From positions 82,247 through 146,246 of the forward strand of contig JBBQAM010000001.1 in the NCBI GenBank assembly GCA_038316335.1: DNA of 64,000 nt. Direction: 5' to 3'. The stretch comes from Flavobacteriales bacterium (lineage in GTDB: Bacteria; Bacteroidota; Bacteroidia; Flavobacteriales; Flavobacteriaceae). The position numbers and the translations under genes were made by a program. The notes under the pieces are model-generated. The model worked only from the letters and a program-made list of their open reading frames with translations. It did not search any database and had not been told where the DNA came from. Of the stretch, positions 44,202 to 59,174 are shown one piece after another (positions within the stretch are counted from its first letter, which is position 1; each line of letters begins with the position of its first letter).

Positions 44202-44846
44202 CTACTTCGTCTTACTTTTTTTTCTGAAGATGAGGTCTTGTTCTTCCATTGCCATAACCACAAGTTTTACATAGTCGTCGATCGTTTTTTGAGTATCCTC
44301 GGGATCCAAAATGTCGATGTTGCCTCTCCATATCATCGACCTATCTTTACCCTCACAAATGCAATACAGCGATGTTTCTGCGTGATACACCGTATATTTT
44401 TCGTAGTAATCAGAGTCGTAATAAACGTCCTGATGTTGCCTATAATCTTCTTTAAAGCCCCCTTTGTAATTATTTAGTTCGTTTAAGGTTTGACGAAATG
44501 ATTCCCGAGTCTCGGAACCGATTATTTTAGTTACCAAAATGGCGTCAAAATCCTTTTCCAACAATTGTGATTCGACGGCATCAAGTTCTTTTTCAGTACG
44601 TGCCGAACGGGTAAAATCAACATCAAAGAGATCTAAGCTTCGCATGGCCTCGACACCCCGGTCATCGAATTCTTTTTTCAACTTGCTCTCAAACTCCGTT
44701 CTGGCTTTCTCATTATGGGTCATTCCTACGATCAGGACTTTATTGGCGTTGAAAATAACGATATCCGGGTTTTTCCAGTTGTCGACCATTTCGGCCGAGG
44801 TACACGCTAGTAAGGTGAGCGCAGTTATAAGCAATAGTTTTTTCAT
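44202..44846 (-). CDS. Lipoprotein, unknown function
   Basis: Signal MKKLLLITALTLLACTS. 214 aa. It lies 11 nt downstream of 44858-45301, so it is probably in the same operon. Confidence 0.6.
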   Translation of the reverse strand: MKKLLLITALTLLACTSAEMVDNWKNPDIVIFNANKVLIVGMTHNEKARTEFESKLKKEFDDRGVEAMRSLDLFDVDFTRSARTEKELDAVESQLLEKDFDAILVTKIIGSETRESFRQTLNELNNYKGGFKEDYRQHQDVYYDSDYYEKYTVYHAETSLYCICEGKDRSMIWRGNIDILDPEDTQKTIDDYVKLVVMAMEEQDLIFRKKSKTK

Positions 44847-44857
44847 TGGGTTGGAAT

Positions 44858-45301
44858 TTAATTCAGTAGTCTTTTCTGCTTTTGCTTTTTCAGCACTTTA
44901 GATATTAATTTAAATAGCCGGGTCTTTATATTTTGATAGTCGGTCATGTATTGCTGAATTTCAGTATCCAATTCCCAATGCGTCTTGGTGTAGGCCCTTT
45001 CCTTTGCTATTTGATCAACATTGTTCACCATGATTTCCAAGCGATTTTCGTGTGCTTGTACTTTTTTCATAAGCCAGATAACCTTTTCTTCCTCATATAA
45101 AATGGTGTTTACGATTTTTTTGCTTTCATCAAATACGGTACCATCGGTAAGTTCAATTGTATATGATTTTACCAGGTCGTTCAGGAATAATTGTTCATCC
45201 CGTGTGAATTTTAAAGCTGACATCCATCGTTTACTGGCTTCATGCATTTCTTCTGCATGTATCCATTCGGTATACCTGCGTTTTTTTTTCGTTGCTTCCA
45301 T
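44858..45301 (-). CDS. Helical hypothetical protein (paralogue of 45439-45870)
   Basis: 147 aa. It shares W-x-S/T-x-L-(K/R)F-x2-(D/Q)E-x2-F-x3-L-x2-SY and the overall length and helical pattern with the next gene. The C-terminal tail is basic. Confidence 0.6.
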   Translation of the reverse strand: MEATKKKRRYTEWIHAEEMHEASKRWMSALKFTRDEQLFLNDLVKSYTIELTDGTVFDESKKIVNTILYEEEKVIWLMKKVQAHENRLEIMVNNVDQIAKERAYTKTHWELDTEIQQYMTDYQNIKTRLFKLISKVLKKQKQKRLLN

Positions 45302-45342: not shown

Positions 45343-45386
45343 CGAATTTATGAATCAGGAAGGTCGTTTGAAATGATTTATGTCAT
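45343..45386 (-). promoter_or_regulatory. Candidate Crp/Fnr-type operator plus -7 box; promoter of 44858-45301 (and lipoprotein 44202-44846)
   Basis: The plus strand reads ATGATTTATGTCAT at 45373-45386. After a 22-nt gap toward the gene, the minus strand reads TAAATTCG (45350-45343), one mismatch to TAnnTTTG. Confidence 0.55.
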
Positions 45387-45438
45387 GTTCCGGGTAGGGA
45401 GTCTGAACGTATTTAGAAGAGGTTTCAAGGCCAGGAAT

Positions 45439-45870
45439 TCATTCGTCTGTTTTTGGTTTGCGCCGTTTTAAGATACCGCCGGCATAATTGAATATTTCTG
45501 ATTTCAATTGTTGAAAGTCTTCCATGCACCCCACCACTTCTGCCTTTAGAATAGCGTGCTTTTGATAAAAACCCAGATCGCATGCTTCGTCCTTGCATTC
45601 GAGCATACCTCCTAGATCTTTTTCGTGGTTTATAATTTGCTGGATTACCTGTGTTTTTCTACTCTTTGCCTTTTTCAATCGTTCGATATAGTCCTGAAGG
45701 CGTTCGAACAAATTCGGTGTATTGGGTTCGAAAACATAGGACTGCAACAAATTATCTATAAAGCTGATTTCATCTTGCATAAAGCGCAAGGTCGATTTCC
45801 AATGTCGGGTGTCCCAATGCAATTCCTCGACTTTTTTTGACTGGTCTTTATTTGTATTTTGTGTCTCCAT
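45439..45870 (-). CDS. Helical hypothetical protein (paralogue of 44858-45301)
   Basis: 143 aa. HWDTRHWKSTLRFMQDEISFIDNLLQSYVFE aligns with EMHEASKRWMSALKFTRDEQLFLNDLVKSYTIE of the neighbouring gene. Confidence 0.6.
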   Translation of the reverse strand: METQNTNKDQSKKVEELHWDTRHWKSTLRFMQDEISFIDNLLQSYVFEPNTPNLFERLQDYIERLKKAKSRKTQVIQQIINHEKDLGGMLECKDEACDLGFYQKHAILKAEVVGCMEDFQQLKSEIFNYAGGILKRRKPKTDE

Positions 45871-45887
45871 GGAAATTTATATACCTA

Positions 45888-45931
45888 TAAAACTAAGGGT
45901 TCACTTAATTTTTTGAAATGATTTTGGTCAT
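45888..45931 (-). promoter_or_regulatory. Candidate Crp/Fnr-type operator plus -7 box; promoter of 45439-45870
   Basis: The plus strand reads ATGATTTTGGTCAT at 45918-45931. After a 22-nt gap, the minus strand reads TAGTTTTA (45895-45888). The palindrome ends 5 nt downstream of the stop codon (45936-45938) of the upstream MBL gene. Confidence 0.6.
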
Positions 45932-45935
45932 ATTT

Positions 45936-47306
45936 CTAAATCGCTATTTCTACTATCTCATTTAGCTTCGGTAGCATACTATGCCAATTAAAGACGGATG
46001 CAAGTTTTACGCGAAGGGCATCTAACGCAGTTGGTTCCCCATGCACGAGAAATACGCGCTCCGGAATATTTTTTATGTTACTTGCCCAGTGGATCAGTTC
46101 GTCCTGATCGGCGTGCGCGGAAAGGCTTTCCAGATGCGCTATGTTGGCTTTAACGGGGACAAATTTTCCGAATAGTTTAATCTCATGTGCTCCTTCGAGT
46201 AATTGCCTTCCCCTTGTGCCTTCGGCTTGATACCCTACCAATAGTACATTGGTGGAAGCACTGTCGATCAATTGTTTCAAGTAGGTGAGCACACGGCCGC
46301 CTGTGACCATTCCGCTCCCCGCAATGACTATTTTAGGCCTGGGGTCATCGATTGTTTTCCACGTATCGGCATACGAGGTTATTATTTCAAAATGATTGCA
46401 CATTGCATGACATTCGTCGCTTGACAGGGTATGCCATTTCGGAAAATTTTCAAATACCGTTAATACATTGTTGCCCATCGGACTGTCAATAAAAAGCGGA
46501 ATGTTGGGGATGCGATTCTTTTTGTATAAGTCCCATAAAAGATACATCAGCGATTGTAAACGTTCGACCGCGAAGGAAGGTATGATCAAATTGCCCCTTT
46601 CGGTAAGTGTTTTGTTGATGAGCTGTATCAATATTTCTTCTACGGGTTCCTGAGGATGCAATTTATTGCCATAGGTACTTTCCATAAATAAATAATCTGC
46701 CCACTTGGGTCTTTCCGGGGTGCCTAACAGGAGATCGTGGATGCGTCCGATATCCCCAGAAAAAACGAATATCTTTTCGAAAATCTCAAGTTCAATAAAT
46801 GTGGCACCAAGGATATGGCCATTATACCTGAATCTAAATCTTATATGTTCGGCAAGCTGGATCCAAACGTCTTTTTCCTCAGAATGAAACAGTTTCGTGG
46901 TGCTTTCGACCTCTTCAACGGTATAAAACGGCAATGCGGGGTGATGCTTTGAATACCCTTCCTCATTTGCGCGCTTTGCTTCTTCTTCATGGATCTTCGC
47001 ACTATCCCGCAGTATAATCGTCGTTATGGCCAATGTGGGTGCTGTCCCGATGATTTTCCCCGAAAAGCCTTCTTTGACCAAGCGGGGTAAATAGCCAGTA
47101 TGATCTAAATGACCGTGTGTAAGCAACACTACATCAATTTTGGTACAATCTATGGGCAAAGGTTTCCAGTTGAGTTCCCTAAGCTCCTTCAGACCTTGGA
47201 ACATACCACAGTCGACCATGATATTTATTTCCGGAGTTTCAAGATAATGTTTCGAGCCGGTGACGGTTCCAGCAGCCCCGAGAAAATGGATCCTGACTTT
47301 ATTCAT
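45936..47306 (-). CDS. MBL-fold metallo-hydrolase of the beta-CASP (RNA/DNA-processing) type
   Basis: ORF 45936-47345. ATG at 47306 (MNKVRIHFLGAAGTVTGS) overlaps the upstream gene by 8 nt. Motifs: LLTHGHLDHTG, a beta-CASP region, and C-terminal SAHADQDEL. Confidence 0.85.
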   Translation of the reverse strand: MNKVRIHFLGAAGTVTGSKHYLETPEINIMVDCGMFQGLKELRELNWKPLPIDCTKIDVVLLTHGHLDHTGYLPRLVKEGFSGKIIGTAPTLAITTIILRDSAKIHEEEAKRANEEGYSKHHPALPFYTVEEVESTTKLFHSEEKDVWIQLAEHIRFRFRYNGHILGATFIELEIFEKIFVFSGDIGRIHDLLLGTPERPKWADYLFMESTYGNKLHPQEPVEEILIQLINKTLTERGNLIIPSFAVERLQSLMYLLWDLYKKNRIPNIPLFIDSPMGNNVLTVFENFPKWHTLSSDECHAMCNHFEIITSYADTWKTIDDPRPKIVIAGSGMVTGGRVLTYLKQLIDSASTNVLLVGYQAEGTRGRQLLEGAHEIKLFGKFVPVKANIAHLESLSAHADQDELIHWASNIKNIPERVFLVHGEPTALDALRVKLASVFNWHSMLPKLNEIVEIAI

Positions 47307-48159
47307 CGTAGACATATTTGATATTACATAGTTGACTGGCTTCATCGAGAATTTTTTTCTTTCTGACCTCTGAAATTCCCAAATGATCTAATAGGAATTT
47401 ATTTTTCTGAAGTTGCCTGTATAGAACGATATCCCGGCCTAATAAAAATGACTTTTCATGAACGGTTAATAAGCGGGTTACCGTTATTGGGTAAAGCCCC
47501 AAACGATCGATACGGTCTTTTAGGCCGTCGTTTTTCGGAAAATCCCAACTCAAAAGATGAAGTCCGACACAGGTGCCATAAATAATCGCATCTTGGGTAA
47601 AACGGGTATTTGTAACAACCATTCCATAGGCCATGTTTTTTGATTTATCGGTACCTCGTTCCCATTGCTTTTTTACATCCTGATATCTTGAATGAATATA
47701 TAATGGCACCTTTACATCACAATTTCGGCCTTCCTCGCTATGAAATTTACATTCCATGATGCTTACCTGGCCGTTTTTTTCTGCAAAGACATCTATTTCG
47801 TGCTTGACACATGCGCCGTGCATTATTTTTCCTACTTGGGTTTGATAGCCGGAATATTCAAATATGGCAGCAATGAATTTTTCAAAGGGAAAGCCGGTCG
47901 GACCTAGTTCGTAGAGGGCCTTTTTTAATTTATATTTCGAAGCGGCTACTGATCTTTTTGCTTTTAATAAGGCGAAGGCGCGATTATAGATTTCCTTAGT
48001 GGTAATGCCCTGATAAAGTTCGTCACCAATTGTATTGGTTATCTGCTTGACCAAATCTTCGTCAGCTCCACTACGTTTAAGGGACGTTCGAAGTTTATTC
48101 ATAGAGAATTTGACTTTTTCCCCTGAGGTTTTAATGATATCATAATGCGATGTTTCCAT
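47299..48159 (-). CDS. ATP-cone domain fused to a PD-(D/E)xK (Mrr-like) nuclease-fold domain
   Basis: The N-terminal ~90 aa resembles an ATP-cone (KVKFSMNKLRTSLKRSG...TTKEIYNRAFALLK). The central part HEIDVFAEKNGQVSIMECKFH fits a D...ExK nuclease core. Confidence 0.65.
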   Translation of the reverse strand: METSHYDIIKTSGEKVKFSMNKLRTSLKRSGADEDLVKQITNTIGDELYQGITTKEIYNRAFALLKAKRSVAASKYKLKKALYELGPTGFPFEKFIAAIFEYSGYQTQVGKIMHGACVKHEIDVFAEKNGQVSIMECKFHSEEGRNCDVKVPLYIHSRYQDVKKQWERGTDKSKNMAYGMVVTNTRFTQDAIIYGTCVGLHLLSWDFPKNDGLKDRIDRLGLYPITVTRLLTVHEKSFLLGRDIVLYRQLQKNKFLLDHLGISEVRKKKILDEASQLCNIKYVYDE

Positions 48160-48239
48160 AGTGGTTCTTTAAGTTGGCCCGAAAAGTTAAAGATGCATGT
48201 TCGGAAATGGCAACAAGTAGGATGCTCGCACGAATTTTT

Positions 48240-49094
48240 TCATTGGGTTAAATCGTGCATCACCAGAACTGGGATTTTTGAATGGTATCCCATTTCCTTT
48301 ACCAAAGGTTTTGATAGCATGCTGTTGAAGAAATTGTGTTTTTTAGTGATAAACGCAATCATATCACTTTCCCTACTTTCAATAAAAGCACTGATTCCCG
48401 CAGGCACCTTAAGTTCGCTAATGTTATGGTACGTATGGGAGGTGTCTTTCAAAATTTCTTCCAACAGGTCCTTGTTCGCCTGTTGTTCATGACTTAGTTC
48501 AGACTCGCGTACAATATGTAATACTCTGATGAACGCACCATGATATTTGGTAATTTCGATTAGATAATTCAGTTCTTTTCGTTTAAAGGCAGTTTTATAA
48601 TCAGTCGGAAAAACGATTTCCTTTGGTTTGATAAATCGGACTATATCGGGAATCGCCAAGACGGCACATTCAGTAACTTTTTCCATGATGTTCACGGTAT
48701 TCGTTCCAAAAACGACACTGGCAGCACCCGTCTCACCTTTGGTGCCCATGACGACGATATCGATGTCATTTTTGGCAATGGTGTCCTTTATGGCAAATAA
48801 CAGGGAGTTGAATGTTGAAATGGTATGGAAGGTATGTTTTGGATTATCATTGTGTAGTTCAAGGATATCCATTAATTTTTCAAAGTTCTCCTCTGAGGTT
48901 TTTTTTGCAGCTTCATAGGCCGGTTCCCCTGGCTCGGGAAACATCATCATGGTGTCAATCGAATAACCGTTGACTTGATACGCATGCAAATAGTAGAATT
49001 CACACACCTGATCATGGAATAGATCTAAGGCATACCGAATTGCATTCAAGGCATTCTTCGAAAAATCAGTGGGTAATAATACTCTTTTGTCCAT
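48240..49094 (-). CDS. Universal stress protein, tandem-domain type (paralogue 1)
   Basis: 284 aa. N-terminus VLLPTDFSKNALNAIRYA and ATP-loop VVMGTKGETGAASVVFGTNT, followed by a second Usp domain. Confidence 0.88.
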   Translation of the reverse strand: MDKRVLLPTDFSKNALNAIRYALDLFHDQVCEFYYLHAYQVNGYSIDTMMMFPEPGEPAYEAAKKTSEENFEKLMDILELHNDNPKHTFHTISTFNSLLFAIKDTIAKNDIDIVVMGTKGETGAASVVFGTNTVNIMEKVTECAVLAIPDIVRFIKPKEIVFPTDYKTAFKRKELNYLIEITKYHGAFIRVLHIVRESELSHEQQANKDLLEEILKDTSHTYHNISELKVPAGISAFIESRESDMIAFITKKHNFFNSMLSKPLVKEMGYHSKIPVLVMHDLTQ

Positions 49095-49118
49095 AACGAA
49101 CCATTTAGGGTTATGGGA

Positions 49119-49162
49119 TAAAATTACTTCCTGGACCGCCCGTTTACTATGACAAATATCAG
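49119..49162 (-). promoter_or_regulatory. Candidate Crp/Fnr-type operator plus -7 box; promoter of usp 48240-49094 (probably continuing into 47299-48159 and 45936-47306)
   Basis: The plus strand reads ATGACAAATATCAG at 49149-49162, which is CTGATATTTGTCAT on the minus strand. After a 22-nt gap the minus strand reads TAATTTTA (49126-49119). The palindrome overlaps the stop codon of the upstream usp. Confidence 0.6.
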
Positions 49163-49995
49163 TCTGTGGTAGGAATGATCAAAAAGGGAATATCAAGGTC
49201 AAATGCCATTCTTTTTACAACGGGCTCCCTACTAACCTTTTTTAAAAAACTATGTTCATAATTCACCATTGCGAGCATATCGATATTCAGTTCATCCAAA
49301 AATGTGTGGATCGAATTGGCCTTTGTCTTAAAAAGAGGCATCCAGTACATTTTATACTCAAAAGGCAAGAGGTATTTCAATAGGATGCTTTTATTCATTT
49401 CTTGTGTAGCATCCAATACTTCTTCTTCGTGGATGTGCATTAAACTTATTTTAGAGCGATATTGCTTGGCAAGAAAAAGTAACGGCTGTAATAATTCGGC
49501 ATCGTACGAATGATGATAGTCAGTAACAAAGGCAATTTCGCTGGGAGGTTTAAAATCAATTTCTTTTGGAATGGTCAAAATAGGGCATTTTTTTATACTG
49601 GATATAGTATCCAAGGCATTGCTTCCTAAAAAAATAGCTGCGAGCTCTGAACCGCCACTGTTACCCATTACCACTAAATCAATCTGCCGGTCTTCGACCT
49701 CTTTAATCAAAATCGACTGCAGTTCTCCGAAATGCGAGATGTACTCAAAAGTGTGTTTGGTTTTGGGAAAATCCAATTTAATTCGGTGTACAAGATTTTG
49801 GAGTCCTTCAAGTGACTCCAGCTTTAGTTGATCGACCCTGTCTTTTTCTACTAGGATTTCCTTTAAGGCAGTATTTGCGTCATAGGCATTCAATAAGAAA
49901 AAGTTGGTAGCTTTTCCTTTCAACAATTTTACGGCATAAAAAAGAGCGCTATAGGCATTGTTGGAAAAATCTGTGGGCACAAGTATATTTTTCAT
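49159..49995 (-). CDS. Universal stress protein, tandem-domain type (paralogue 2)
   Basis: 278 aa. ILVPTDFSNNAYSALFYA and VVMGNSGGSELAAIFLGSNA. Confidence 0.88.
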   Translation of the reverse strand: MKNILVPTDFSNNAYSALFYAVKLLKGKATNFFLLNAYDANTALKEILVEKDRVDQLKLESLEGLQNLVHRIKLDFPKTKHTFEYISHFGELQSILIKEVEDRQIDLVVMGNSGGSELAAIFLGSNALDTISSIKKCPILTIPKEIDFKPPSEIAFVTDYHHSYDAELLQPLLFLAKQYRSKISLMHIHEEEVLDATQEMNKSILLKYLLPFEYKMYWMPLFKTKANSIHTFLDELNIDMLAMVNYEHSFLKKVSREPVVKRMAFDLDIPFLIIPTTD

Positions 49996-50006
49996 GTGGC
50001 AAAGTA

Positions 50007-50846
50007 TTATTGATGTTGTACGATCATAAATGGTATGGTAACATGGAAGCCTAATTTCTGAATGACCGGCTCTAAAAACAAGCGCTCTAAAAAAGTGTGT
50101 TTATGCTGCACCATCACCAATAGATTTATTCGATCCTTCACAAGGAAACCATCGATAGCTTCGATAATTTCCTGATCCGGCAGCATCTGTAATGAATGAG
50201 AAGTCATGTCGAGCATCCGTTCTAATTTTTTCTTATTCTTTTCTTGTTGTTCACTTAATTTATAACCCGATGAAACATGCAGGATTTCGATATGTGATAA
50301 GTGGCTCTTGGCAATGGTGATTAATTCGTTAAAAGATGCTGTCCTGTAGTCAATTTCATAGTCAGTCGGGAAAAGTATTCTTTTGGGGTTTTCATATTTA
50401 AAAGTCGCAGGTACCGCTATGACCGGACAATTCACCTTTTTAATGACATGAACGGTATTGGTGCCCATCAGGATTTCTTTTGCCCCGGTTGCCCCATGTG
50501 TTCCCATAATTACGATATCCGCTTTTTCGTTTATTAAGGTGTTTGAAATTTCATCGACCAACATATTGAAAGCCGCATGCAGCAAAAAGGTATGCTTCGG
50601 ATTTTTGAACTGCTTTTTTATTTTAGCCTTTAGTTTTTGCAATTTTGAAAGACTGTCCTCCCGGTATATATCTCCAAGACCGATTTGACCGGGGCTGTGT
50701 AGTACATATTCGGCCTTATAAATGGCAGGGGTAAAGGTATGCAGCAGGTAAAATGTTGAAGTCTCCTTCTTGTATAGTTCTAAGGCATACACAATAGCGT
50801 TATAGGCGTTTTCGGAAAAATCGGTAGGAAGTATTATTCTTTTCAT
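50007..50846 (-). CDS. Universal stress protein, tandem-domain type (paralogue 3)
   Basis: 279 aa. IILPTDFSENAYNAIVYA and VIMGTHGATGAKEILMGTNT. Its stop is 11 nt upstream of the start of paralogue 2. Confidence 0.88.
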   Translation of the reverse strand: MKRIILPTDFSENAYNAIVYALELYKKETSTFYLLHTFTPAIYKAEYVLHSPGQIGLGDIYREDSLSKLQKLKAKIKKQFKNPKHTFLLHAAFNMLVDEISNTLINEKADIVIMGTHGATGAKEILMGTNTVHVIKKVNCPVIAVPATFKYENPKRILFPTDYEIDYRTASFNELITIAKSHLSHIEILHVSSGYKLSEQQEKNKKKLERMLDMTSHSLQMLPDQEIIEAIDGFLVKDRINLLVMVQHKHTFLERLFLEPVIQKLGFHVTIPFMIVQHQ

Positions 50847-50913
50847 CGCAAAAAACAGTTAGTTTATAAGACGGTCTTATTAGGAAGGTGGCATTATTAT
50901 AGTTTGGAAAGTG

Positions 50914-51759
50914 TCATCTTGCTACATTTTGTAATACTAAAAATGGGATCTTGATATGAAGGCCGATCTTGTCAATGGTCGATTTGTAAAGCATATCCTC
51001 CATATAGGAGTGCCTAGAATTAACGATAATGAGCATATCGATTTGGTTGTGTAAAATATACTTCGTTATCGCAATCGTCTTATCTTTTTCCTCTGAGGTC
51101 TCAAAACGCAATTTTTGTTTTTGCAGACATTCCTCCAAAAAGTATTTATTATCTTCTTGACGATGTGAGAGGTGTTCGAGGGGATCAATGTACAATAAAT
51201 GTATATTCGATCGAAAAGAACCGGTCAATTCACCCAATAATTTTAGTTCCCGTCGATTATATGGTACCATATAATTGGTAGGGAAGAGGATTTCCCGTGG
51301 GGCATTATATTCATAATTCTCCGGAATTGCTAGAACAGGGCAATGAACATATTTTAGCACTTGTAAGGTATTGCTGCCAAACGTAATTTTTCGGTCATTG
51401 GTGCTACCTCGAGTTCCCATGACCACAACATCGACATTCCTTTCATTGACTAAATCGTTTAATTCATCGATTAATAGGCCAAAGGCTGGAATGATTTCAA
51501 ATGTATGATGGGGATTTGGTGAATAGGACACGATTTCCGAATGTAACCTTAAAAGATTCTCTTCAGATTTTTTAAAAGTGGCTTCCTTAAGTAATTCGTG
51601 CTTATTTCGCTGCAGAGAGGTATCCTGCTGATATACTTCATCAGCATAAGCGTGCAGAATGGTAAATTGGCTTTTCTCATACTTAAATACCTGACATGCA
51701 TATTTTAGTGCATTAAAGGCATTCTCGGAAAAATCGGTGGGCACCAAAATCTTGCGCAT
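50914..51759 (-). CDS. Universal stress protein, tandem-domain type (paralogue 4)
   Basis: 281 aa. ILVPTDFSENAFNALKYA and VVMGTRGSTNDRKITFGSNT. Confidence 0.88.
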   Translation of the reverse strand: MRKILVPTDFSENAFNALKYACQVFKYEKSQFTILHAYADEVYQQDTSLQRNKHELLKEATFKKSEENLLRLHSEIVSYSPNPHHTFEIIPAFGLLIDELNDLVNERNVDVVVMGTRGSTNDRKITFGSNTLQVLKYVHCPVLAIPENYEYNAPREILFPTNYMVPYNRRELKLLGELTGSFRSNIHLLYIDPLEHLSHRQEDNKYFLEECLQKQKLRFETSEEKDKTIAITKYILHNQIDMLIIVNSRHSYMEDMLYKSTIDKIGLHIKIPFLVLQNVAR

Positions 51760-51784
51760 GTTTGTTACTATTTTTGAAATATTT

Positions 51785-51857
51785 CAAAATTACCGGCAAT
51801 GGACTTATAAAACCATGACATTCGTCAGTTGCATTCTTCAACCTTTTTATAAATTTG
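51785..51857. promoter_or_regulatory. Shared operator with two divergent -7 boxes (usp 50914-51759 on the minus strand, trxA on the plus strand)
   Basis: The palindrome ATGACATTCGTCAG lies at 51815-51828. On the minus strand TAATTTTG (51792-51785) follows after a 22-nt gap. On the plus strand TAAATTTG (51850-51857) follows after a 21-nt gap. Confidence 0.6.
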
Positions 51858-51876
51858 TACTGTAATTTATAGTCAG

Positions 51877-52176
51877 ATGAAAAGTAGTTTCCAAGAGATA
51901 ATTTCCTCCAAAAACCTTGTTCTAGTTGATTTTTCTGCAGAATGGTGTGGGCCCTGTAAAACATTGGGGCCTATTTTGATCCAAGTGAAGGACGAATTGA
52001 AGGATCGTCTGAAAATCGTAAAGATCGATGTAGACAAGAATCGTTCCTTATCCGAGAAATATGAAGTTAGGGGCGTGCCTACAATGGTCCTTTTCAAGGA
52101 GGGCAGACAAATTTGGAGGCAATCGGGCGTTGTACAAAAAAATGACATCGTCAACATCGTGAAATCCCATCTTTAA
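51877..52176 (+). CDS. trxA: Thioredoxin
   Basis: 99 aa with the WCGPC active site. Confidence 0.92.
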   Translation: MKSSFQEIISSKNLVLVDFSAEWCGPCKTLGPILIQVKDELKDRLKIVKIDVDKNRSLSEKYEVRGVPTMVLFKEGRQIWRQSGVVQKNDIVNIVKSHL

Positions 52177-52245
52177 GGGTTCATGATTCTAAGTTCGGGT
52201 TCGAAAGTATTGAGCTCAAGCTTGTAAGGGGCCAATTCGCCCAAT

Positions 52246-53094
52246 TCACTCATGCAATACTAGAAACGGAACCTTTGTATGGTAGCTTATTTTCTCAATG
52301 GTCGGTCGAAACAGGATGCGCTGAAAAAAATTGAGGTTCTTTGCGACCATAGCGATCATATCGATTTCCCTGCTCTCTGTGAAGCTTTGAACAGCCGCAT
52401 CGAGGTCATTACCTCCAATCGAATGAAAACTATGATCGATATCAATCAGATAGTCGTTTAAAAAATCCTTGTTTTTTTGTTGCTCATCAAGGAGCTCCGC
52501 TTTTTGAGTAGTGAGATGTAAAATGCGTACGGTCGCATTGTGAAGCAATGCCATGCTAATTAGGGTATTCAATAGGCGAATATCATAACTGATATGATAA
52601 TCGGTCGGAAAGGCTATTTCCTTGAGACCCAAATAAATCGCCTCACTGGGTATGGCCAAAAGCGGGCATTTAATTTTTGTAATCGTATCGCCGGTATTAC
52701 TACCGACTATTGCCTTTTTGAGACCGCCGGCACCTTTCGTTCCCATGATGATCATGTCGATCTTTTTTTCGGTTGATACCCTTTTTATGGTGTCTATAAA
52801 ATAATCGTGTACCGCAATAGTTTCAAAAGAGTGTTTTGTGTTGAAGGGGAGTTTTTCGATTTTTCCTAGCAACTTTTGAAGATTTTCCTTGCTTTCCTTT
52901 AAGAGGGACTCCCGATAAATTTCCGATGCCTCCCGGACGGCAGTACCGGGACCTGAATATGGGGAAATGGGGTCTACATGTAGTAGGTAAAATGTGCAAC
53001 TTGATTTTTTAAATAGTTCAAGGCCGTATTTTAGGGCATTCCAGGCATTTTCTGAAAAGTCTGTGGGAACGAGTATGCGTTGCATCTTGGTCAT
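52246..53094 (-). CDS. Universal stress protein, tandem-domain type (paralogue 5)
   Basis: 282 aa. ILVPTDFSENAWNALKYG and IIMGTKGAGGLKKAIVGSNT. Confidence 0.88.
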   Translation of the reverse strand: MTKMQRILVPTDFSENAWNALKYGLELFKKSSCTFYLLHVDPISPYSGPGTAVREASEIYRESLLKESKENLQKLLGKIEKLPFNTKHSFETIAVHDYFIDTIKRVSTEKKIDMIIMGTKGAGGLKKAIVGSNTGDTITKIKCPLLAIPSEAIYLGLKEIAFPTDYHISYDIRLLNTLISMALLHNATVRILHLTTQKAELLDEQQKNKDFLNDYLIDIDHSFHSIGGNDLDAAVQSFTESREIDMIAMVAKNLNFFQRILFRPTIEKISYHTKVPFLVLHE

Positions 53095-53110
53095 AATTTT
53101 GAATAATGCC

Positions 53111-53154
53111 CAATATTAAGCAACCTAATCGCAACATAAAATGATGATTGTCAT
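53111..53154 (-). promoter_or_regulatory. Candidate Crp/Fnr-type operator plus -7 box; promoter of usp 52246-53094
   Basis: The plus strand reads ATGATGATTGTCAT at 53141-53154. After a 22-nt gap the minus strand reads TAATATTG (53118-53111), one mismatch to TAnnTTTG. Confidence 0.55.
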
Positions 53155-53182
53155 AATTGAAAATAGACGGCATCGGAACGCT

Positions 53183-54238
53183 TTACTGAAAGATATGCTC
53201 GAGTTTGTCGCTGTCCAGTATTTTGATGTTCCTGTCCTTGATGTCGATAAGTCCTTCTTTTTTGAAGGCAGAGAGGGTGCGAATCAAAGTTTCAGTTGCC
53301 ATTCCGGCAACATTGGCCAAATCGCTTCGCAAAACGTGCAGGTTGCCTTCGGGATCTTTTTGAAGGCTTTGGGCAAATTTCAGCAGGGTACTAGCCGTTT
53401 TCTGGCGAACGGTGCCATAGGCCATCTGCAATAATTGCTCTTTTGCCTCTAAAAGATTTTCAGAAAATATTTTCATCAATTCCATGCTCAGTTGGTGGTT
53501 TTCTTGGAGAAGCAGACACAGTTTCTCGTTAGGAATTCCCACCAATTTAGTAAGTTCAATGGCCGAGGCAGATTCGCTATACGAAAGTCGTCGTGCGAAT
53601 GAGGAAAAACCAAAAAAGTCATCTGGTTTATAAATGCCGGTAATGAGTTCCTTGCCGGTTTCATCTAATTTGTGGGTTTTCACAAGGCCCTTAAGCACGA
53701 GATATACAGTAGTGGCATTCATGCCCTCCTGATAGATGTTCTCACCCGATTCATAGGTATATGACTTACCATTGTCATCAATGAAATTTTTCATTTCATC
53801 AATAGTATGCATGCTTTTTAGCGCATTATTTGTTTTCGTATTGAAATTGATATGGGGTACCTTATAAAGTTTGATTTTGGCCAAACGGCTCTTTATGGCC
53901 CCAATTAATTCGTGTTCGTCAAAAGGTTTGGTCAAATAATCATCTGCGCCTAGTTCCATACCTTTCCGAATGTCTTTATACTCGTTTTTCGCGGAAAGAA
54001 AAATAAAAGGAATATGTTGGGTATCTTGTGTTTGGGCAAGGGCTTCCAAGACGCCATAACCATCTAATTCGGGCATCAAAATATCACAAAGAATGATGTC
54101 GGGTCGATGCTGTTTGGCCGCTTCAATTCCTTTTTTGCCATCCGCGGAGGCAATAACCCTATAATTCGAAAGCTCTAATAACTCCTGGATATTCTCCCTT
54201 AAAATCGAGTCGTCCTCTATCAGCAATACGGTGCACAT
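53183..54238 (-). CDS. Hybrid response regulator: CheY-like receiver + cNMP-binding-like domain + Crp/Fnr-type HTH
   Basis: Receiver features: E8-D9-D10, D52 in IILCDILMPELDG, K104 in LTKPF. These are followed by a Crp-like beta-barrel (VYLVLKGLVKTHKLDETGKELITGIY) and the HTH SDLANVAGMATETLIRTLSAFKKEG. Confidence 0.88.
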   Translation of the reverse strand: MCTVLLIEDDSILRENIQELLELSNYRVIASADGKKGIEAAKQHRPDIILCDILMPELDGYGVLEALAQTQDTQHIPFIFLSAKNEYKDIRKGMELGADDYLTKPFDEHELIGAIKSRLAKIKLYKVPHINFNTKTNNALKSMHTIDEMKNFIDDNGKSYTYESGENIYQEGMNATTVYLVLKGLVKTHKLDETGKELITGIYKPDDFFGFSSFARRLSYSESASAIELTKLVGIPNEKLCLLLQENHQLSMELMKIFSENLLEAKEQLLQMAYGTVRQKTASTLLKFAQSLQKDPEGNLHVLRSDLANVAGMATETLIRTLSAFKKEGLIDIKDRNIKILDSDKLEHIFQ

Positions 54239-54479
54239 ATTCCATATTTTAAGTTATTGGGAAGTCAACACTTTCGTTGCATGCCAACAATGCTCAATTG
54301 GGTACATTGATTTCGAAAGAGAGACTCGCCTAATAGTACATTTTAAAAATTTACACTGCCTTTGAGGCTGTTGGAAATTATAGTAATTTAAGGATTTTAT
54401 TGCCTCTGTTTGACATTTTATGACACACTTAACATACCTCAGTCTTCTTACGACTTAATTTGGTCGAAAAGTCATGTAC

Positions 54480-54523
54480 ATGATAAAGGTCATTTTTCAA
54501 TTCACGCCCAGCCGATATTTTTG
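54480..54523 (+). promoter_or_regulatory. Candidate Crp/Fnr-type operator plus -7 box; promoter of cbpA-cbpM
   Basis: ATGATAAAGGTCAT at 54480-54493, a 22-nt gap, then a perfect TATTTTTG at 54516-54523. The cbpA ATG is at 54588. Confidence 0.6.
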
Positions 54524-54587
54524 AGCCCCAAGCCAGAATTTGAAGTTGGTCGAACCAAAACCTTTTAAGCAAGAGTACGATTAGAAA

Positions 54588-55481
54588 ATGGAATATATAG
54601 ATTATTATAAAATACTTGGCGTACCAAAAAATGCCACTGGGCAGGATATCAAAAAGGCCTATCGAAAAATGGCCCGCAAATATCATCCCGATATAAATCC
54701 CAATAACGCTGAGGCCGAACAAAAATTCAAGGAAATCAATGAGGCCAATGAAGTATTATCCGATCCTGAAAAGCGCAAAAAATATGACCAGTATGGCAAG
54801 GATTGGCAACATGCCGAGGAATTTGAAAAGGCACGTAGCCAACAAAGTTCGCGTAGGGCCTCAAATCAACAGTATTCCGGGGATTTCGGAGGGAATGATT
54901 TTTCCGATTTCTTCGAAACCATGTTCGGTGGTGCACGTGGTGGATATTCCGGGGGTAGTCAGGTGAAATTCCGGGGTCAGGATTTTAATGCGGAGCTTAA
55001 GTTACAACTACGCGATGTTTATACGTCCCATAAACAGACGTTGACCGTGAATGGCAAGAACATCCGGATTACGATACCAGCTGGCATCGAAAATGGCCAG
55101 ACCATTAAAATAAACGGACATGGTGGGCCAGGTCGTAACAATGGACCTAATGGGGACCTTTTTATAACCTTTTCGATCGAGAACACGACCCCGTTTAAGA
55201 GAGATGGCATCAATCTTTATAAAAATGTAGATCTTGATCTGTATACCGCGGTATTGGGTGGGGAACTAATGGTAGATACATTTGATGGTAAAGCCAAATT
55301 AAAAATCAATCCCGAAACGCAAAATGGTACCACCGTCAAATTGAAGGGAAAGGGCTTTCCAATCTATAAGCGGGAAGGTCAGTTTGGGGATCTTTTTATC
55401 ACCTATACCGTCAAAACGCCAACAAATTTATCCCCTAAGGAGATCGAACTTTTTAAGGAACTTGCCGCTATCAAAAAATAA
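54588..55481 (+). CDS. cbpA: DnaJ-class co-chaperone without zinc finger (CbpA-like curved-DNA-binding protein)
   Basis: J domain DYYKILGV...KYHPDINP, a G/F-rich linker, and two DnaJ C-terminal beta domains. No CxxCxGxG repeats. Confidence 0.85.
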
Positions 55482-55488
55482 TGGAATT

Positions 55489-55779
55489 ATGAAGCGTACC
55501 GATTTTATAGCCGTAACCGATTTTTGTGCCAGCCATAATATATCACATGCTTTTATCGTCGAACTTAAGGAATATGGTCTTGTCGAGGTCGTTGAGAGCG
55601 GAAGCCTATTGTATCTGCCGTTGGATGAACTTCCAAAAACAGAAAAAATAATTCGTATGTTTTCGGATCTGGATATTAACTTGGAGGGTATTGAGGTCAT
55701 TACGCGTCTTTTGACGCATCTTGAAGAACTTCGAAACGAAATGAGACACCTTCGGAATCGACTCGGTTTATATGAGTAG
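55489..55779 (+). CDS. cbpM: Chaperone modulator CbpM-like (MerR-type HTH) protein
   Basis: ATG at 55489, internal to ORF 55384-55779, gives a 96-aa protein MKRTDFIAVTDFCASHNISHAFIVELKEYGLV. It starts 8 nt after the cbpA stop. Confidence 0.7.
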   Translation: MKRTDFIAVTDFCASHNISHAFIVELKEYGLVEVVESGSLLYLPLDELPKTEKIIRMFSDLDINLEGIEVITRLLTHLEELRNEMRHLRNRLGLYE

Positions 55780-55959
55780 TTGCCACTACAAAAGCACTCC
55801 CAGAAACAATCTCTTTAGGTGTTGTCAGTTTTCTTTATGTTACGGAATATTGAATGCTTGTTTCGATCAAGGTGGCCCAAATCATTTCCCAGTGTATGAT
55901 GGAAGATTTCCGAAGCGTGTGCCAGCGAATAACCTCTGATCTTCCTGAAAATTTCCTTC

Positions 55960-56003
55960 ATGACTTAGGTCATTTCGAAGCCTATAATATTGCTTTACCT
56001 TTA
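55960..56003 (+). promoter_or_regulatory. Candidate Crp/Fnr-type operator plus -7 box; promoter of 56029-56241 (and probably 56307-56720)
   Basis: Perfect palindrome ATGACTTAGGTCAT at 55960-55973, a 22-nt gap, then TACCTTTA at 55996-56003. The ATG is at 56029. Confidence 0.6.
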
Positions 56004-56028: not shown

Positions 56029-56241
56029 ATGAAGGTAGTTGCCAAAGTACAGGACCTAACGAAAGACCTTAGCAAAAATGTTATCAGTAGAAATCTTAGT
56101 CGCATTTTGGATATTCGCATTTTAGAGATCGATACCGAAAATAGTACCATTACTTTTCTATATGACAGTGGTCTGGCCTTTGAAAAGGCAAAGCGCGAGC
56201 TGTGGCGTATCGGATATCCCATTCTGCAATGTATTACCTAG
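56029..56241 (+). CDS. Small ferredoxin-fold (HMA-like) protein lacking the CxxC motif
   Basis: 70 aa. The beta-alpha-beta-beta-alpha-beta periodicity and the C-terminal ...AKRELWRIGYPI align with the HMA protein at 60619-60891 (...VKRQLKDLGYPS). The position of CGGC is occupied by TKDL. Confidence 0.45.
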   Translation: MKVVAKVQDLTKDLSKNVISRNLSRILDIRILEIDTENSTITFLYDSGLAFEKAKRELWRIGYPILQCIT

Positions 56242-56306: not shown

Positions 56307-56720
56307 ATGAAATCATCACAAAAAGTTGGGAACGCATTTTATCAAAATCTTGGTAAACTTTTCTATGCAGTTGCATCGGTTGATAAAAAAGTAGCTCCCA
56401 AAGAGATAGAAAAGCTCAAAGCCGATGTACGCAAATACTGGCTTCCAATTGATGCTGATGAGGACGAATTTGGCACTGATGCGGCACATCAAATTGAAAT
56501 CGTCTTCGATTGGCTACTGCATGAAGAGAAGGATAGTGCGCGATGTTTTGACGATTTTATGGAGTTTTATTTTGACCATCCCCATAAATTCAGTACTGAA
56601 ATTAAACAACTTACCTGGGAGACTGCCAATGGTATTGCCGCCTCTTTTGCGGGCAAGAATAAATCAGAAGTGATCGTACTCGCTAAATTAAAGAAAGCTT
56701 TAAAAAATACTGAGGTCTAA
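56307..56720 (+). CDS. TerB-like helical protein (tentative)
   Basis: 137 aa. FYQNLGKLFYAVASVDKKVAPKEIEKLKADV resembles the TerB/co-chaperone DjlA N-terminal fold pattern. No search was performed. Confidence 0.45.
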   Translation: MKSSQKVGNAFYQNLGKLFYAVASVDKKVAPKEIEKLKADVRKYWLPIDADEDEFGTDAAHQIEIVFDWLLHEEKDSARCFDDFMEFYFDHPHKFSTEIKQLTWETANGIAASFAGKNKSEVIVLAKLKKALKNTEV

Positions 56721-56828: not shown

Positions 56829-57647
56829 ATGGATTTCCTTCAGATATTAGGGTATATAGGTGCATTAATGATCGGAATCACTCTTGGCCTCATCGGAGGT
56901 GGAGGTTCTATTTTGACGGTTCCTATCTTTGTCTACCTTCTTTCGATCAATCCTGTTGTGGCGACTGGTTATTCGCTCTTTGTAGTTGGCATGACCTCGA
57001 TGGTAGGGACGGTACAAAATATTCGAAAAGGGCTGGTCGATTTCAAAATGGCCTTTGTTTTTGCGATTCCTGCATTCATTGCGGTCTATATCAACCGAAG
57101 GTATGTCGTACCCCTGATTCCGGAAAACCTATTTAGTTTTAATGGGTTACTAGTTACAAAAGATATCGGAATCATGGTATTTTTCGCACTCCTTATGCTA
57201 GCGGCTTCCATTTCAATGATACGCGGAAAGGGCCAAGTGCTTGATAAAGAACGTGCAAATCGGCGCTCAAATATGATGACGATAATGGCCGAAGGATTTC
57301 TAATTGGCGCAATAACCGGACTCGTAGGTGCGGGAGGCGGATTTTTGATTATTCCTGTTTTGGTAGTCATGGCAAAATTGCCCATGAAAAATGCAGTTGC
57401 CACGTCACTGCTGATCATTGCTATCAATTCACTGATCGGCTTTATAGGCGATATTGAAACCATGACCATTGATTGGCCATTTTTATTGGGTTTCATTGCT
57501 ATTTCGATTTCTGGAATTTTTATGGGGATGTGGATTGGTAAGTCAATCGATGGCGATAAGCTTAAAAAGGGTTTCGGATGGTTTGTACTGGTAATGGGTA
57601 TTTATATCATTTATAAGGAGCTTTTTATTTTGTTTGCAAATGGCTGA
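56829..57647 (+). CDS. Sulfite exporter TauE/SafE family membrane protein
   Basis: 272 aa with about 8 TM segments and duplicated G-rich motifs GLIGGGGSILTVP and GLVGAGGGFLIIP. Confidence 0.85.
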   Translation: MDFLQILGYIGALMIGITLGLIGGGGSILTVPIFVYLLSINPVVATGYSLFVVGMTSMVGTVQNIRKGLVDFKMAFVFAIPAFIAVYINRRYVVPLIPENLFSFNGLLVTKDIGIMVFFALLMLAASISMIRGKGQVLDKERANRRSNMMTIMAEGFLIGAITGLVGAGGGFLIIPVLVVMAKLPMKNAVATSLLIIAINSLIGFIGDIETMTIDWPFLLGFIAISISGIFMGMWIGKSIDGDKLKKGFGWFVLVMGIYIIYKELFILFANG

Positions 57648-57686
57648 TATAAATCATACGCTATCACACCATAAAATGTAAGCTTT

Positions 57687-57730
57687 GTAACCTAAGTTAC
57701 CTTCAAAAACTTGAATACATCGTAATTTTA
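57687..57730 (+). promoter_or_regulatory. GTAAC-N4-GTTAC operator plus -7 box; promoter of the persulfide dioxygenase-rhodanese gene
   Basis: GTAACCTAAGTTAC at 57687-57700, a 22-nt gap, then TAATTTTA at 57723-57730. The ATG is at 57759. Confidence 0.6.
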
Positions 57731-57758: not shown

Positions 57759-59174
57759 ATGCATGTAGAACAGATTTATACCGGATGCTTGGCACACGCT
57801 GCCTATTATTTGGAAAGTAAAGGTGAGGCGGCCATTTTTGACCCGCTTCGAGAAGTAGAACCTTACATTGCTAGGGCGGCAAAGGACAAGGCCAAAATAA
57901 AATATGTGTTCGAGACCCATTTTCACGCCGATTTTGTGAGTGGTCATTTGGATCTTAAGAAAAAAACAGGTGCAGAGATTGTTTTTGGCCCAACTGCAAG
58001 ACCTGGGTATGACGCCATAGTTGCGAAGGATAACCAGATTTTCAAAGTAGGGGATTATCAGGTAAAAGTGATCCATACCCCTGGGCATACCATGGAAAGT
58101 ACGACGTATCTTTTAATCGATGAAAACCAAAAAGAACATGGTATTATTACGGGAGACACCTTGTTTATTGGGGATGTAGGTCGACCAGACCTTGCACAGC
58201 ACGTGGTTTCGGAACTTACCGAGGAGAAATTGGCAGGTTACTTGTTCGATTCCTTAAGAAATAGGATCATGCCATTGCCAGATGACCTTATAGTGTATCC
58301 CAACCATGGTGCCGGTTCTGCGTGTGGAAAAATGATGAGCAAGGAAACGACCGATACGCTGGGCCATCAGAAAAAAGTAAACTATGCCCTTCGGCCCGAC
58401 ATGACCAAAGATGAATTCATTAAAGAGTTGCTTACCGGATTGACCAGGCCCCCTGGTTATTTTCCGCAAAACGTTTTAATGAATATAAAGGGGTATGACA
58501 GCTTGGATACCGTCATGGATCGGGCCAAAACCCCGTTATCTGTTGACGCCTTTGAGGCCGCTGCCAACGAAACGGGAGCCTTGATGCTGGATACCCGTGA
58601 GGCCGTTGATTTCGCCAAAGGCTTTATCCCGAATAGCATCAACATTGCTCTTGATGGTAATTTTGCACAATGGGTAGGCGAAATGATTCCCGATGTGAAG
58701 CAGGAAATACTATTAATTACCTATCCAGATCAACAGGAAGAAACGATTACCCGACTTTCGAGAGTTGGGTATGATCATGCCGTGGGTTACTTGAAGGGAG
58801 GTTTTGAGGCCTGGCAAAAGTCAGGAAAGGAATTTGAGACCATTAATAGGATTACGGCCAAGGAATTCGAAGCAGTTTATTCGGCCGAAAAGCCCTTGAT
58901 CATTGATGTCCGAAAGAAAAGCGAATTCGATTCCGAACATGTGATAGGCGCCATAAACGTGCCATTGAACGAAATCAATCGGCACTTATCACAATTTCCA
59001 AAAGATAGGTCCTTTATACTCCACTGTGCAGGGGGATATCGCAGTATGATTGCGGCATCTATACTAAAGCAGCGTGGCTGGGTGAACTTGGTTGATGTGA
59101 TAGGGGGTTTTGATGAAATTAAAAAGACGGGCATAGCAAAGACAGCCTATGTATGCCCGACCACACTTCTATAA
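57759..59174 (+). CDS. MBL-fold persulfide dioxygenase fused to two rhodanese domains
   Basis: ETHFHADFVSGH and HTPGHT metal ligands of the ETHE1/glyoxalase-II type. These are followed by rhodanese modules, the last with the active-site loop HCAGGYRS. Confidence 0.85.
   Translation: MHVEQIYTGCLAHAAYYLESKGEAAIFDPLREVEPYIARAAKDKAKIKYVFETHFHADFVSGHLDLKKKTGAEIVFGPTARPGYDAIVAKDNQIFKVGDYQVKVIHTPGHTMESTTYLLIDENQKEHGIITGDTLFIGDVGRPDLAQHVVSELTEEKLAGYLFDSLRNRIMPLPDDLIVYPNHGAGSACGKMMSKETTDTLGHQKKVNYALRPDMTKDEFIKELLTGLTRPPGYFPQNVLMNIKGYDSLDTVMDRAKTPLSVDAFEAAANETGALMLDTREAVDFAKGFIPNSINIALDGNFAQWVGEMIPDVKQEILLITYPDQQEETITRLSRVGYDHAVGYLKGGFEAWQKSGKEFETINRITAKEFEAVYSAEKPLIIDVRKKSEFDSEHVIGAINVPLNEINRHLSQFPKDRSFILHCAGGYRSMIAASILKQRGWVNLVDVIGGFDEIKKTGIAKTAYVCPTTLL

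Follow-up and report, generated by a model that had tools for sequence, protein, structure and literature searches.

What reads a palindrome that recurs, at a nearly constant distance from the promoter, in front of the stress genes of a flavobacterium, does it turn these genes on or off, and in response to which signal? The locus that raises this question lies in a 64-kb stretch of DNA (contig JBBQAM010000001.1, positions 82,247 to 146,246; the whole of this stretch is here called the window), whose source is a Maribacter-like member of the Flavobacteriaceae. The genes that bear the palindrome, or box, are five tandem-USP (universal stress protein) genes, trxA, cbpA-cbpM, genes for an ATP-cone nuclease and a beta-CASP RNase, small-protein genes and an MBL-rhodanese gene. 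The explanation that we consider probable is that a regulator encoded within the cluster itself, a phospho-receiver fused to a Crp-type module, activates a USP-rich regulon of the low-oxygen or dormancy type through boxes of the FNR/FixK type. Our confidence that these genes constitute a regulon is high. An earlier, sequence-only reading of this DNA had likewise proposed that the sites define a stress gene set, and we agree; co-regulation of the box-bearing genes is predicted from the boxes that they share, and the low-oxygen or dormancy character of the regulon is suggested by analogy with other systems.

A recurrent box in the window

The sequence-only reading had listed seven 14-bp palindromes (boxes 1 to 7 below), each followed by an octamer resembling the Bacteroidota -7 element TAnnTTTG. 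All seven palindromes and all of the octamers are present, and the distance between box and octamer (zero or one mismatch to TAnnTTTG) is 22 nucleotides (nt) for eight promoters and 21 nt for trxA. The set nevertheless needed two corrections. An eighth box had been missed at 57644-57657, where the palindrome is followed after 22 nt by AAGCTTTG, upstream of the MBL-rhodanese gene; we count it as a site because its architecture is the same and because the arrangement is identical in the closest relative (L081). Furthermore, boxes 1 and 2 are not independent, since the promoter was duplicated together with the paralogous helical gene: they share a 23-nt block (45367-45389 and 45912-45934, 87% identity) that reaches past the box. 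The placement of the sites between genes holds in general, except that box 3 overlaps the stop codon of usp2.

The features are as follows, with predicted targets and with orthologous sites in related loci. Among these, the near loci L081-L087 and L208 (Maribacter, Arenibacter and Cerina) have regulators 94, 82 and 60-66% identical to that of the window, and the distant loci L001-L011 (n = 11; a Flavobacteriaceae metagenome-assembled genome (MAG), Flavobacteriales, Mucilaginibacter, Chitinophagaceae, Larkinella and Jiulongibacter) have regulators 40-53% identical.

Box 1, 45373-45386, minus strand: ATGACATAAATCAT read towards the gene, -7 box TAAATTCG at 45343-45350; predicted targets, the helical 147-aa gene 44858-45301 and probably the lipoprotein gene 44202-44846; orthologous sites in L081, L086 and L208
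Box 2, 45918-45931, minus strand: ATGACCAAAATCAT, -7 box TAGTTTTA at 45888-45895; predicted target, the helical 143-aa gene 45439-45870; conserved in L081, L086 and L208
Box 3, 49149-49162, minus strand: CTGATATTTGTCAT, -7 box TAATTTTA at 49119-49126; predicted target, usp1 48240-49094; possible further targets, the ATP-cone/Mrr nuclease gene 47299-48159 and the beta-CASP RNase gene 45936-47345; conserved in L081, L082 and L208
Box 4, 51815-51828, both strands, common to two divergent promoters: on the minus strand, 22 nt to TAATTTTG at 51785-51792, leading to usp4-usp3-usp2 (51759 down to 49159); on the plus strand, 21 nt to TAAATTTG at 51850-51857, leading to trxA 51877-52176; this 22/21 divergent layout is kept in L081, L082, L086 and L208
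Box 5, 53141-53154, minus strand: ATGACAATCATCAT, -7 box TAATATTG at 53111-53118; predicted target, usp5 52246-53094; the box lies just 3' of the regulator gene
Candidate regulator, 53183-54238, minus strand: receiver domain (REC), degenerate sensor fold of the cyclic nucleotide (cNMP) type and Crp-type helix-turn-helix, 351 aa
Box 6, 54480-54493, plus strand: ATGATAAAGGTCAT, -7 box TATTTTTG at 54516-54523; predicted targets, cbpA 54588-55481 and cbpM 55489-55779; conserved in L081 and L208
Box 7, 55960-55973, plus strand: ATGACTTAGGTCAT, -7 box TACCTTTA at 55996-56003; predicted targets, the small gene 56029-56241, the 137-aa gene 56307-56720 and possibly the TauE gene 56829-57647; orthologous sites in L081, L082 and L001
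Box 8, 57644-57657, plus strand: CTGATATAAATCAT, then, after 22 nt, the octamer at 57680-57687 given above; predicted target, the MBL-fold gene with two rhodanese domains, 57759-59174

The clustering of the boxes goes well beyond chance, as had been claimed. The pattern TGATNNNNGTCAT occurs five times in the window against 0.60 expected, and TGAYNNNNGTCAK yields 13 strand matches against 1.55 expected; none of 100 shuffles reached either count. A position weight matrix (PWM) of the box was symmetrised and scanned across the entire 64 kb, coding sequence included. The seven listed boxes score 16.5-18.8, and just two other matches exceed 12: box 8 (14.7, intergenic) and 49510-49523 (14.2, within the usp2 coding sequence). 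In 200 dinucleotide shuffles of the window, PWM matches of at least 14 averaged 0.35 (maximum 3) against nine observed, and the composite of box plus spacing to the -7 element never appeared; 1.04 Mb of unrelated control loci contained six PWM matches and one composite. With a single coding match in 64 kb, the scarcity of the motif in coding and shuffled sequence that the sequence-only reading predicted is what we find.

That the repetition is an accident of chance or of duplication, the paralogues having been copied with their upstream DNA, is already contradicted by the data and has next to no probability. The block common to boxes 1 and 2 and the paralogy of the five usp genes are what such an origin would leave behind; the other promoters, however, have only the box and the -7 element in common, and the box is also carried by the non-paralogous trxA, cbpA, MBL-rhodanese and small-protein genes. 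The conservation of the composite over genera and classes, together with its absence from shuffles and its near absence from the control DNA, further opposes this explanation.

Two lesser matches in the window deserve mention. The match inside usp2, ATGATGATAGTCAG, is probably due to chance, because no -7 box lies 21-23 nt away and there is no counterpart in L081. Chance is also the probable origin of the weak composite at 28864-28877 (ATGATAATGATAAT, 22 nt, then TAATTTTA), which is intergenic, remote from the cluster and defective in its right half-site.

Box type, spacing and mode of action

The consensus across the eight boxes is aTGAy-wwww-rTCAT. In 44 aligned promoters, T2, G3 and A4 and T11, C12 and A13 are 100% conserved, which is partly forced by the PWM threshold used for their selection. 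The box contains the TGA-N6-TCA inverted repeat of Crp/Fnr class II promoters and is of the FNR/FixK type with A/T in the outer positions, not a new kind of operator.

The phase between box and promoter is equally strict. Of 43 sites with PWM scores of at least 14, taken from the window and six orthologous loci, 39 have the start of a -7-like box at an offset of 22 and four at 21, over a background of about one per offset, in agreement with the earlier description of a Crp/Fnr-type palindrome in fixed phase with a Bacteroidota -7 box. At class II promoters, the sites from which CRP and FNR activate are canonically centred at -41.5. The box centre in our set lies 29 nt upstream of the T of TAnnTTTG. 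Since genome-wide mapping of transcription start sites in Flavobacterium psychrophilum places TAnnTTTG at -12 to -5 (PMC9723704), the palindrome is predicted here to span -48 to -35 with its centre at -41.5, which matches the position near -41 that had been proposed. The boxes would accordingly be binding sites of a dimeric Crp-family activator that abuts the -33 position of a sigma-A promoter.

Within the aligned promoters the promoter-proximal half-site is the tighter one (T14 in all 44, versus A1 in 73%), and position 17, which would be the G of a -33 TTG with a 19-nt spacer, is G in just six of the 44. An activator that contacts RNA polymerase is favoured by these two properties as well as by the single-base precision of the spacing and by the sharing of box 4 between divergent promoters. 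The opposite arrangement would be one in which the boxes are operators, a Crp-family protein occluding the -33 region and keeping the stress genes off until its release. The box ends at about -35 and so overlaps the place where sigma region 4 would bind, the -7 boxes are close enough to consensus that the promoters might fire unaided, and in a comparison of TTG frequencies the 17 control promoters have no -33 signal either. Repression is nonetheless improbable: a spacing of 22 nt in 39 of 43 cases has the precision typical of activators that touch RNA polymerase, not of occlusion, the centre coincides with the established class II activation position, a single box is common to two divergent promoters, 22 and 21 nt away, and the G at position 17 is rare. 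Activation rather than repression thus appears the better account of the geometry.

A scan for sigma-70 promoters found 43 promoter-like sites in the window against 45.5 expected, with no terminators bounding the operons, and a search of Rfam found no known RNAs.

Conservation in relatives

Orthologous promoters in other genera have kept the site as well as its 22-nt spacing, the outcome that the phylogenetic-footprinting check proposed in the sequence-only reading asked for. In seven other Flavobacteriaceae loci the composite stands before orthologous genes, and these loci contain five to ten PWM sites per 21 kb, nearly all intergenic and nearly all 22 nt from a -7-like box. In the near loci it precedes Usp genes, the divergent trx/usp pair (with the 21/22 arrangement kept), genes for HPF, helical 143/147-aa and small 88-aa proteins, and also cbpA, HSP20, HemN-like radical-SAM and PPDK genes; further targets there are a Pyr_redox_2-DsrC-DsrE set, DUF302 and a PNPOx-like protein. 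The window regulator itself is 94% identical to a protein of a metagenome contig (L081) and 82% identical to one of a Maribacter sp. MAG (L208). Overall similarity among the window, L081 and L208 is too high for fine footprinting to be informative (90% in the alignment of the cbpA-regulator intergenic region, A3).

The search of contigs with the regulator alignment was swamped by generic receiver-domain matches, and only 11 full-length relatives were recovered from it. In these distant loci, among them those from Chitinophagia, Sphingobacteriia and Cytophagia, the relaxed pattern nTGA-N6-TCAn is followed by a -7 box at a spacing of 22 in 17 of 23 cases, and the genes behind it encode Usp, thioredoxin, an LDH-like dehydrogenase, CBS and PNPOx-like proteins, a FixI/CcoI-type ATPase and the kinase discussed below. 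The recognition helix of the regulator is also kept, in the form T[AS]TE[ST]LIRT.

The candidate regulator

The most likely activator is the product of a gene within the cluster itself (53183-54238), already put forward in the sequence-only reading. The window encodes no other protein of the Crp family, to which this one indeed belongs, and the corresponding gene is likewise the sole Crp-family gene in each of 18 related REC-Crp loci. Pfam assigns it Response_reg (residues 4-115, 2.1e-29), cNMP_binding and HTH_Crp_2 (3e-14). The phospho-acceptor residues of the receiver (D9, D10, D52, S82 and K104-P105) are invariant in 15 sequences. For the C-terminal 210 residues the closest solved structures are 2gau, a Crp/Fnr-family protein of Porphyromonas, and the FNR of Aliivibrio fischeri; the fused architecture of receiver and Crp module is absent among solved structures. 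The recognition helix, ETLIR, aligns to ETISR of FNR and is of the E--SR/RE--R type.

The regulator alignment (A1) contains no N-terminal Cys cluster of the FNR type, the N-terminus being the Response_reg domain. The phosphate-binding cassette for cNMP in E. coli CRP is formed by Glu72, Arg82 and Ser83. In our reading of A1 the pocket Arg is not found, an invariant E222-x-A-x-A standing in place of the R-S/T-A motif; this stretch aligns with the ligand-free 'psfaqale' segment of FNR, a correspondence at the level of the multiple alignment, given that pairwise BLAST with CRP is gapped there. Because there is neither a Cys cluster nor the cNMP Arg, and because the receiver is intact, the input is most plausibly phosphorylation, rather than a nucleotide or an Fe-S cluster. 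Once phosphorylated at Asp52, the protein would adopt a form in which its Crp module binds DNA and contacts RNA polymerase.

The assignment of the boxes to this protein draws on co-localisation, which is strong yet no proof, and we regard it as good. A box lies directly 3' of the regulator gene in every Flavobacteriales locus examined (L081-L087, L208 and L001-L004). As to autoregulation, the kinase-regulator operon is headed by a box with -7 element in L083 and L006 only, and the remaining loci are ambiguous.

Upstream of the regulator, at 54340-54445, blocks that include TGACATTTTATGACA (TGACA-N5-TGACA) are strongly conserved even in L208; they contain no FNR-type box and may be where the regulator gene is itself transcribed from or where some other factor binds. 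In the window as well as in L081 and L208 the regulator gene and cbpA are transcribed divergently, with no kinase gene next to the former, a layout of this sublineage that could reflect either a rearrangement or an orphaned regulator.

Oxygen as the candidate signal

The regulator gene is immediately preceded, in 16 of the 18 related loci, by a PAS-HisKA-HATPase gene of the same orientation. The strong matches of the kinase PAS domain in the PDB are E. coli DosP (6.5e-12), Rhizobium FixL (RmFixL, 2.4e-11), EcDOS and Bradyrhizobium FixL (BjFixL); the lone strong match that is no haem-PAS oxygen sensor is the uncharacterised multi-sensor kinase 10jx (2.4e-9), and the next PAS structure follows only at 5e-4. 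In the alignment of the kinase family the proximal His has been kept, as have the two Arg residues of the pocket. The PAS domain of the relatives' kinases therefore appears FixL/DosP-like and would, judging from these residues and matches, bind haem and sense oxygen.

Since the kinase upstream of the regulator in most relatives has such a PAS domain, the signal is most probably oxygen limitation. The targets hemN, fixI, the LDH-like dehydrogenase, HPF, HSP20 and the USPs lend support to this, as does the analogy with the lxa locus described below. In F. psychrophilum, cbb3 oxidase and haem synthesis are induced under oxygen limitation (PMC9723704). Our confidence in oxygen as the signal is moderate.

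Assuming that these elements act together, a soluble haem-PAS histidine kinase would sense oxygen and phosphorylate the regulator, and in the fused protein the two steps of FixJ and FixK would be reduced to one. The output would comprise USPs, thioredoxin, CbpA/CbpM, the nuclease and RNase, small proteins and the MBL-rhodanese protein, to which the relatives may add HPF, HSP20, a HemN-like radical-SAM protein, PNPOx-like proteins, an LDH-like dehydrogenase and a FixI-type ATPase.

Which protein reads the boxes

A blind scan of metagenome contigs for the exact composite ATGAY-N4-RTCAT-N22-TAnnTTTG, in which 80 loci were read among the matches listed, bears on the choice of regulator. Genes found repeatedly among the matches listed encode FixS/CcoS, HemN-like proteins, Pta, MlaE and cytochrome c lipoproteins; single finds were a NirK-like protein, a hemerythrin-HHE protein, an Rrf2 regulator and a helical 135-aa protein, and there were two Usp genes and one stand-alone Crp/Fnr gene.

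These results raise an alternative in which the boxes are phylum-wide, general FNR boxes, read mainly by a Cys-bearing stand-alone Fnr-like regulator of the Fe-S type encoded elsewhere, the fused protein being a co-regulator of overlapping specificity or having other targets. The FixS/CcoS, HemN-like, Pta, cytochrome c and NirK-like genes returned by the scan point in this direction. Two to three kb from three ccoS sites (L094, L113 and L138) lie genes for Fnr-like proteins of 225-228 aa with an N-terminal CxxC, whose helix TATESAIR is nearly identical to that of the fused regulator; these genes look like an uncharacterised Bacteroidota FNR controlling cbb3 oxidase. The one stand-alone Crp/Fnr gene (L128) carries the composite at its own promoter, and FnrN and FixK provide a precedent for two regulators acting on one box (PMC4999443). 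Against this, neither the window nor any of the 18 REC-Crp loci contains such a gene, the density of boxes peaks around the REC-Crp gene with the gene directly 3' of it always boxed, and USP genes are rare in the blind scan (two of 80 among the matches listed), which argues that the USP subset tracks the fused regulator. As the principal reader of the boxes in this cluster, a stand-alone Fnr-like protein is therefore unlikely. The flanks and central bases of boxes near REC-Crp genes and of those near stand-alone Fnr genes show no usable difference.

The box followed by 22 nt is a general design for activators of the Crp/Fnr family on Bacteroidota promoters, and at least two paralogues probably share it, as FnrN and FixK do in Alphaproteobacteria.

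Several points weigh against activation by the fused, oxygen-responsive regulator. The PWM was trained on the window's own boxes, and the independent test lies only in the other loci. No histidine kinase was found in the 64-kb window with tblastn and the kinases of two relatives, not even a HATPase match; no kinase gene adjoins the regulator in the two closest relatives, L081 and L208, and no kinase homologue on the L081 contig is among the best 120 protein-database matches. The regulator's own promoter in the window has no box. Depletion of TTG at -33 was not shown (14-25 nt upstream of the -7 box), the 17-promoter control being without a -33 signal too. Finally, box and spacing are unique neither to this regulon nor to this regulator, since they also occur before ccoS, hemN and pta near Fnr-like genes, and a paralogue encoded elsewhere could bind the boxes instead of or alongside the fused protein.

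Relation to known systems

In full-text searches of the literature we came across no account of a regulator with REC-Crp architecture, nor of this regulon, in Bacteroidota, and none of an FNR-type box for Flavobacteriia. The claim that the regulon is undescribed therefore stands for the searchable literature, but not for the kind of system, as USP-rich low-oxygen loci with TGA-N6-TCA are known in Proteobacteria (PMC3721108). An FNR/FixK-type box at -41.5 in a USP-rich low-oxygen island belongs to a kind already represented by FNR/Anr, FixLJ-FixK, DosR and lxa.

The closest parallel in signalling is FixLJ-FixK of Alphaproteobacteria such as rhizobia and Caulobacter. As in that system, a homologue of the haem-PAS kinase is linked to the regulator (in relatives), the output is a Crp/Fnr-family protein without an Fe-S cluster that would act on a box with the core TGAT-N4-ATCA, and hemN-, fixI- and fixS-type genes are among the targets (again in relatives). 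A kinase with the haem-type PAS residues of FixL is seen in the relatives only. Unlike in FixLJ-FixK, the receiver and the FixK-like module form one polypeptide of 351 aa, with no LuxR-type FixJ, no relay and no second Crp gene nearby; the outer box positions are A/T, not T/A; the promoters belong to the -7 type found in Bacteroidota; USPs predominate in the regulon; and the window is without a kinase.

The low-oxygen locus lxa of Burkholderia cenocepacia contains six USPs, an alpha-crystallin and a metal-dependent RNase, with TGA-N6-TCA at 17 intergenic points (PMC3721108). The present cluster resembles this FNR/Anr-type system in having TGA-N6-TCA at many intergenic points of a USP-rich island, in a small HSP and a metal-dependent RNase, in its class II geometry and in the E--(S/I)R helix. 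It differs in that the regulator has no N-terminal Cys cluster, a phospho-receiver presumably sensing instead, and in phylum and type of sigma-factor promoter.

With DosS/DosT-DosR (DevR) of Mycobacterium tuberculosis and OsdR of Streptomyces the proposed system would share its two-component nature, a haem-based kinase and many USPs; OsdR is treated in PMC5069765. The DosR regulon includes alpha-crystallin-type HSP20, PNPOx-like proteins and ribosome hibernation. The five USP genes of the window and the boxed HPF and HSP20 genes of relatives match this content, a resemblance that is functional only: DosR is a NarL/LuxR-type regulator with another box and GAF-haem sensors, whereas the output domain here is HTH_Crp_2 and the sensor domain of the relatives' kinase is PAS, and the DNA-binding modules are not homologous. 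The stand-alone Bacteroidota Fnr-like regulators next to ccoS/cbb3 genes (L094, L113 and L138) have the helix TATESxIR, the box and the 22-nt spacing in common with the fused protein; they differ in their length of about 225 aa, in the N-terminal CxxC and further Cys residues, in lacking a receiver, and in being associated with respiratory, not USP genes.

A broader proposal has, in our judgement, an even chance of being right. It holds that the Bacteroidota possess a phylum-wide oxygen-sensing two-component system, consisting of a FixL-like kinase and a FixJ/FixK-FNR fusion that would drive, from position -41.5 of sigma-A promoters, a dormancy regulon analogous to that of DosR and composed of USPs, the ribosome hibernation factor, HSP20, RNases, thioredoxin and chaperones; its box would be shared with a stand-alone Fe-S Fnr paralogue that serves respiration, as FnrN and FixK share theirs. 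If this is true, the class II geometry at -41.5 would be preserved on the divergent sigma-A promoters of Bacteroidota, and a single fused protein could take the place of the two-step relay from FixJ to FixK. Among the main degraders of algal and particulate organic matter are the marine Flavobacteriaceae, which live in the micro-oxic interiors of particles and whose oxygen sensing and quiescence are little described in the searchable literature. The locus offers a testable model, with a defined box, eight promoters whose start sites can be predicted, a candidate phospho-switch regulator and, in relatives, a candidate haem sensor, and the pattern of box plus spacing can be used to annotate low-oxygen regulons across Bacteroidota genomes and metagenomes.

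Genes of the putative regulon

The helical proteins of about 140 aa (44858-45301 and 45439-45870) belong to no Pfam family and are consistent members of the regulon; a helical 135-aa protein similar to this pair is found behind the same composite in the unrelated metagenome contig L156. For the gene pair behind box 7, the labels 'HMA-like' and 'TerB-like' that the sequence-only reading had attached find no support in Pfam at E <= 1 and are dropped, the sole hint being a weak NCBIfam match to CsoZ (E = 0.002). The first gene of this pair, 56029-56241, stops at a TAG where the 97%-identical L081 has TCG, and its product is 18 residues shorter (70 versus 88 aa).

The genes for the ATP-cone/Mrr-type nuclease and the beta-CASP metallo-RNase overlap (45936-48159), and usp1, nuclease and RNase may form one operon, as their adjacency on the same strand suggests. 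The nuclease/RNase pair travels with the USP cluster in several genera (L081, L086, L087 and L208). NCBIfam similarity of the beta-CASP RNase to Cas14/aCPSF1 falls below the cutoff; the low-oxygen locus of B. cenocepacia likewise has an induced metal-dependent RNase. The MBL-rhodanese gene behind box 8 heads a sulfur/redox cluster with TauE, a 1-Cys peroxiredoxin and a Tll0287-like cytochrome c, and in the L081 counterpart of this arrangement rhodanese, HMA, Pyr_redox_2 and cytochrome bd genes follow downstream.

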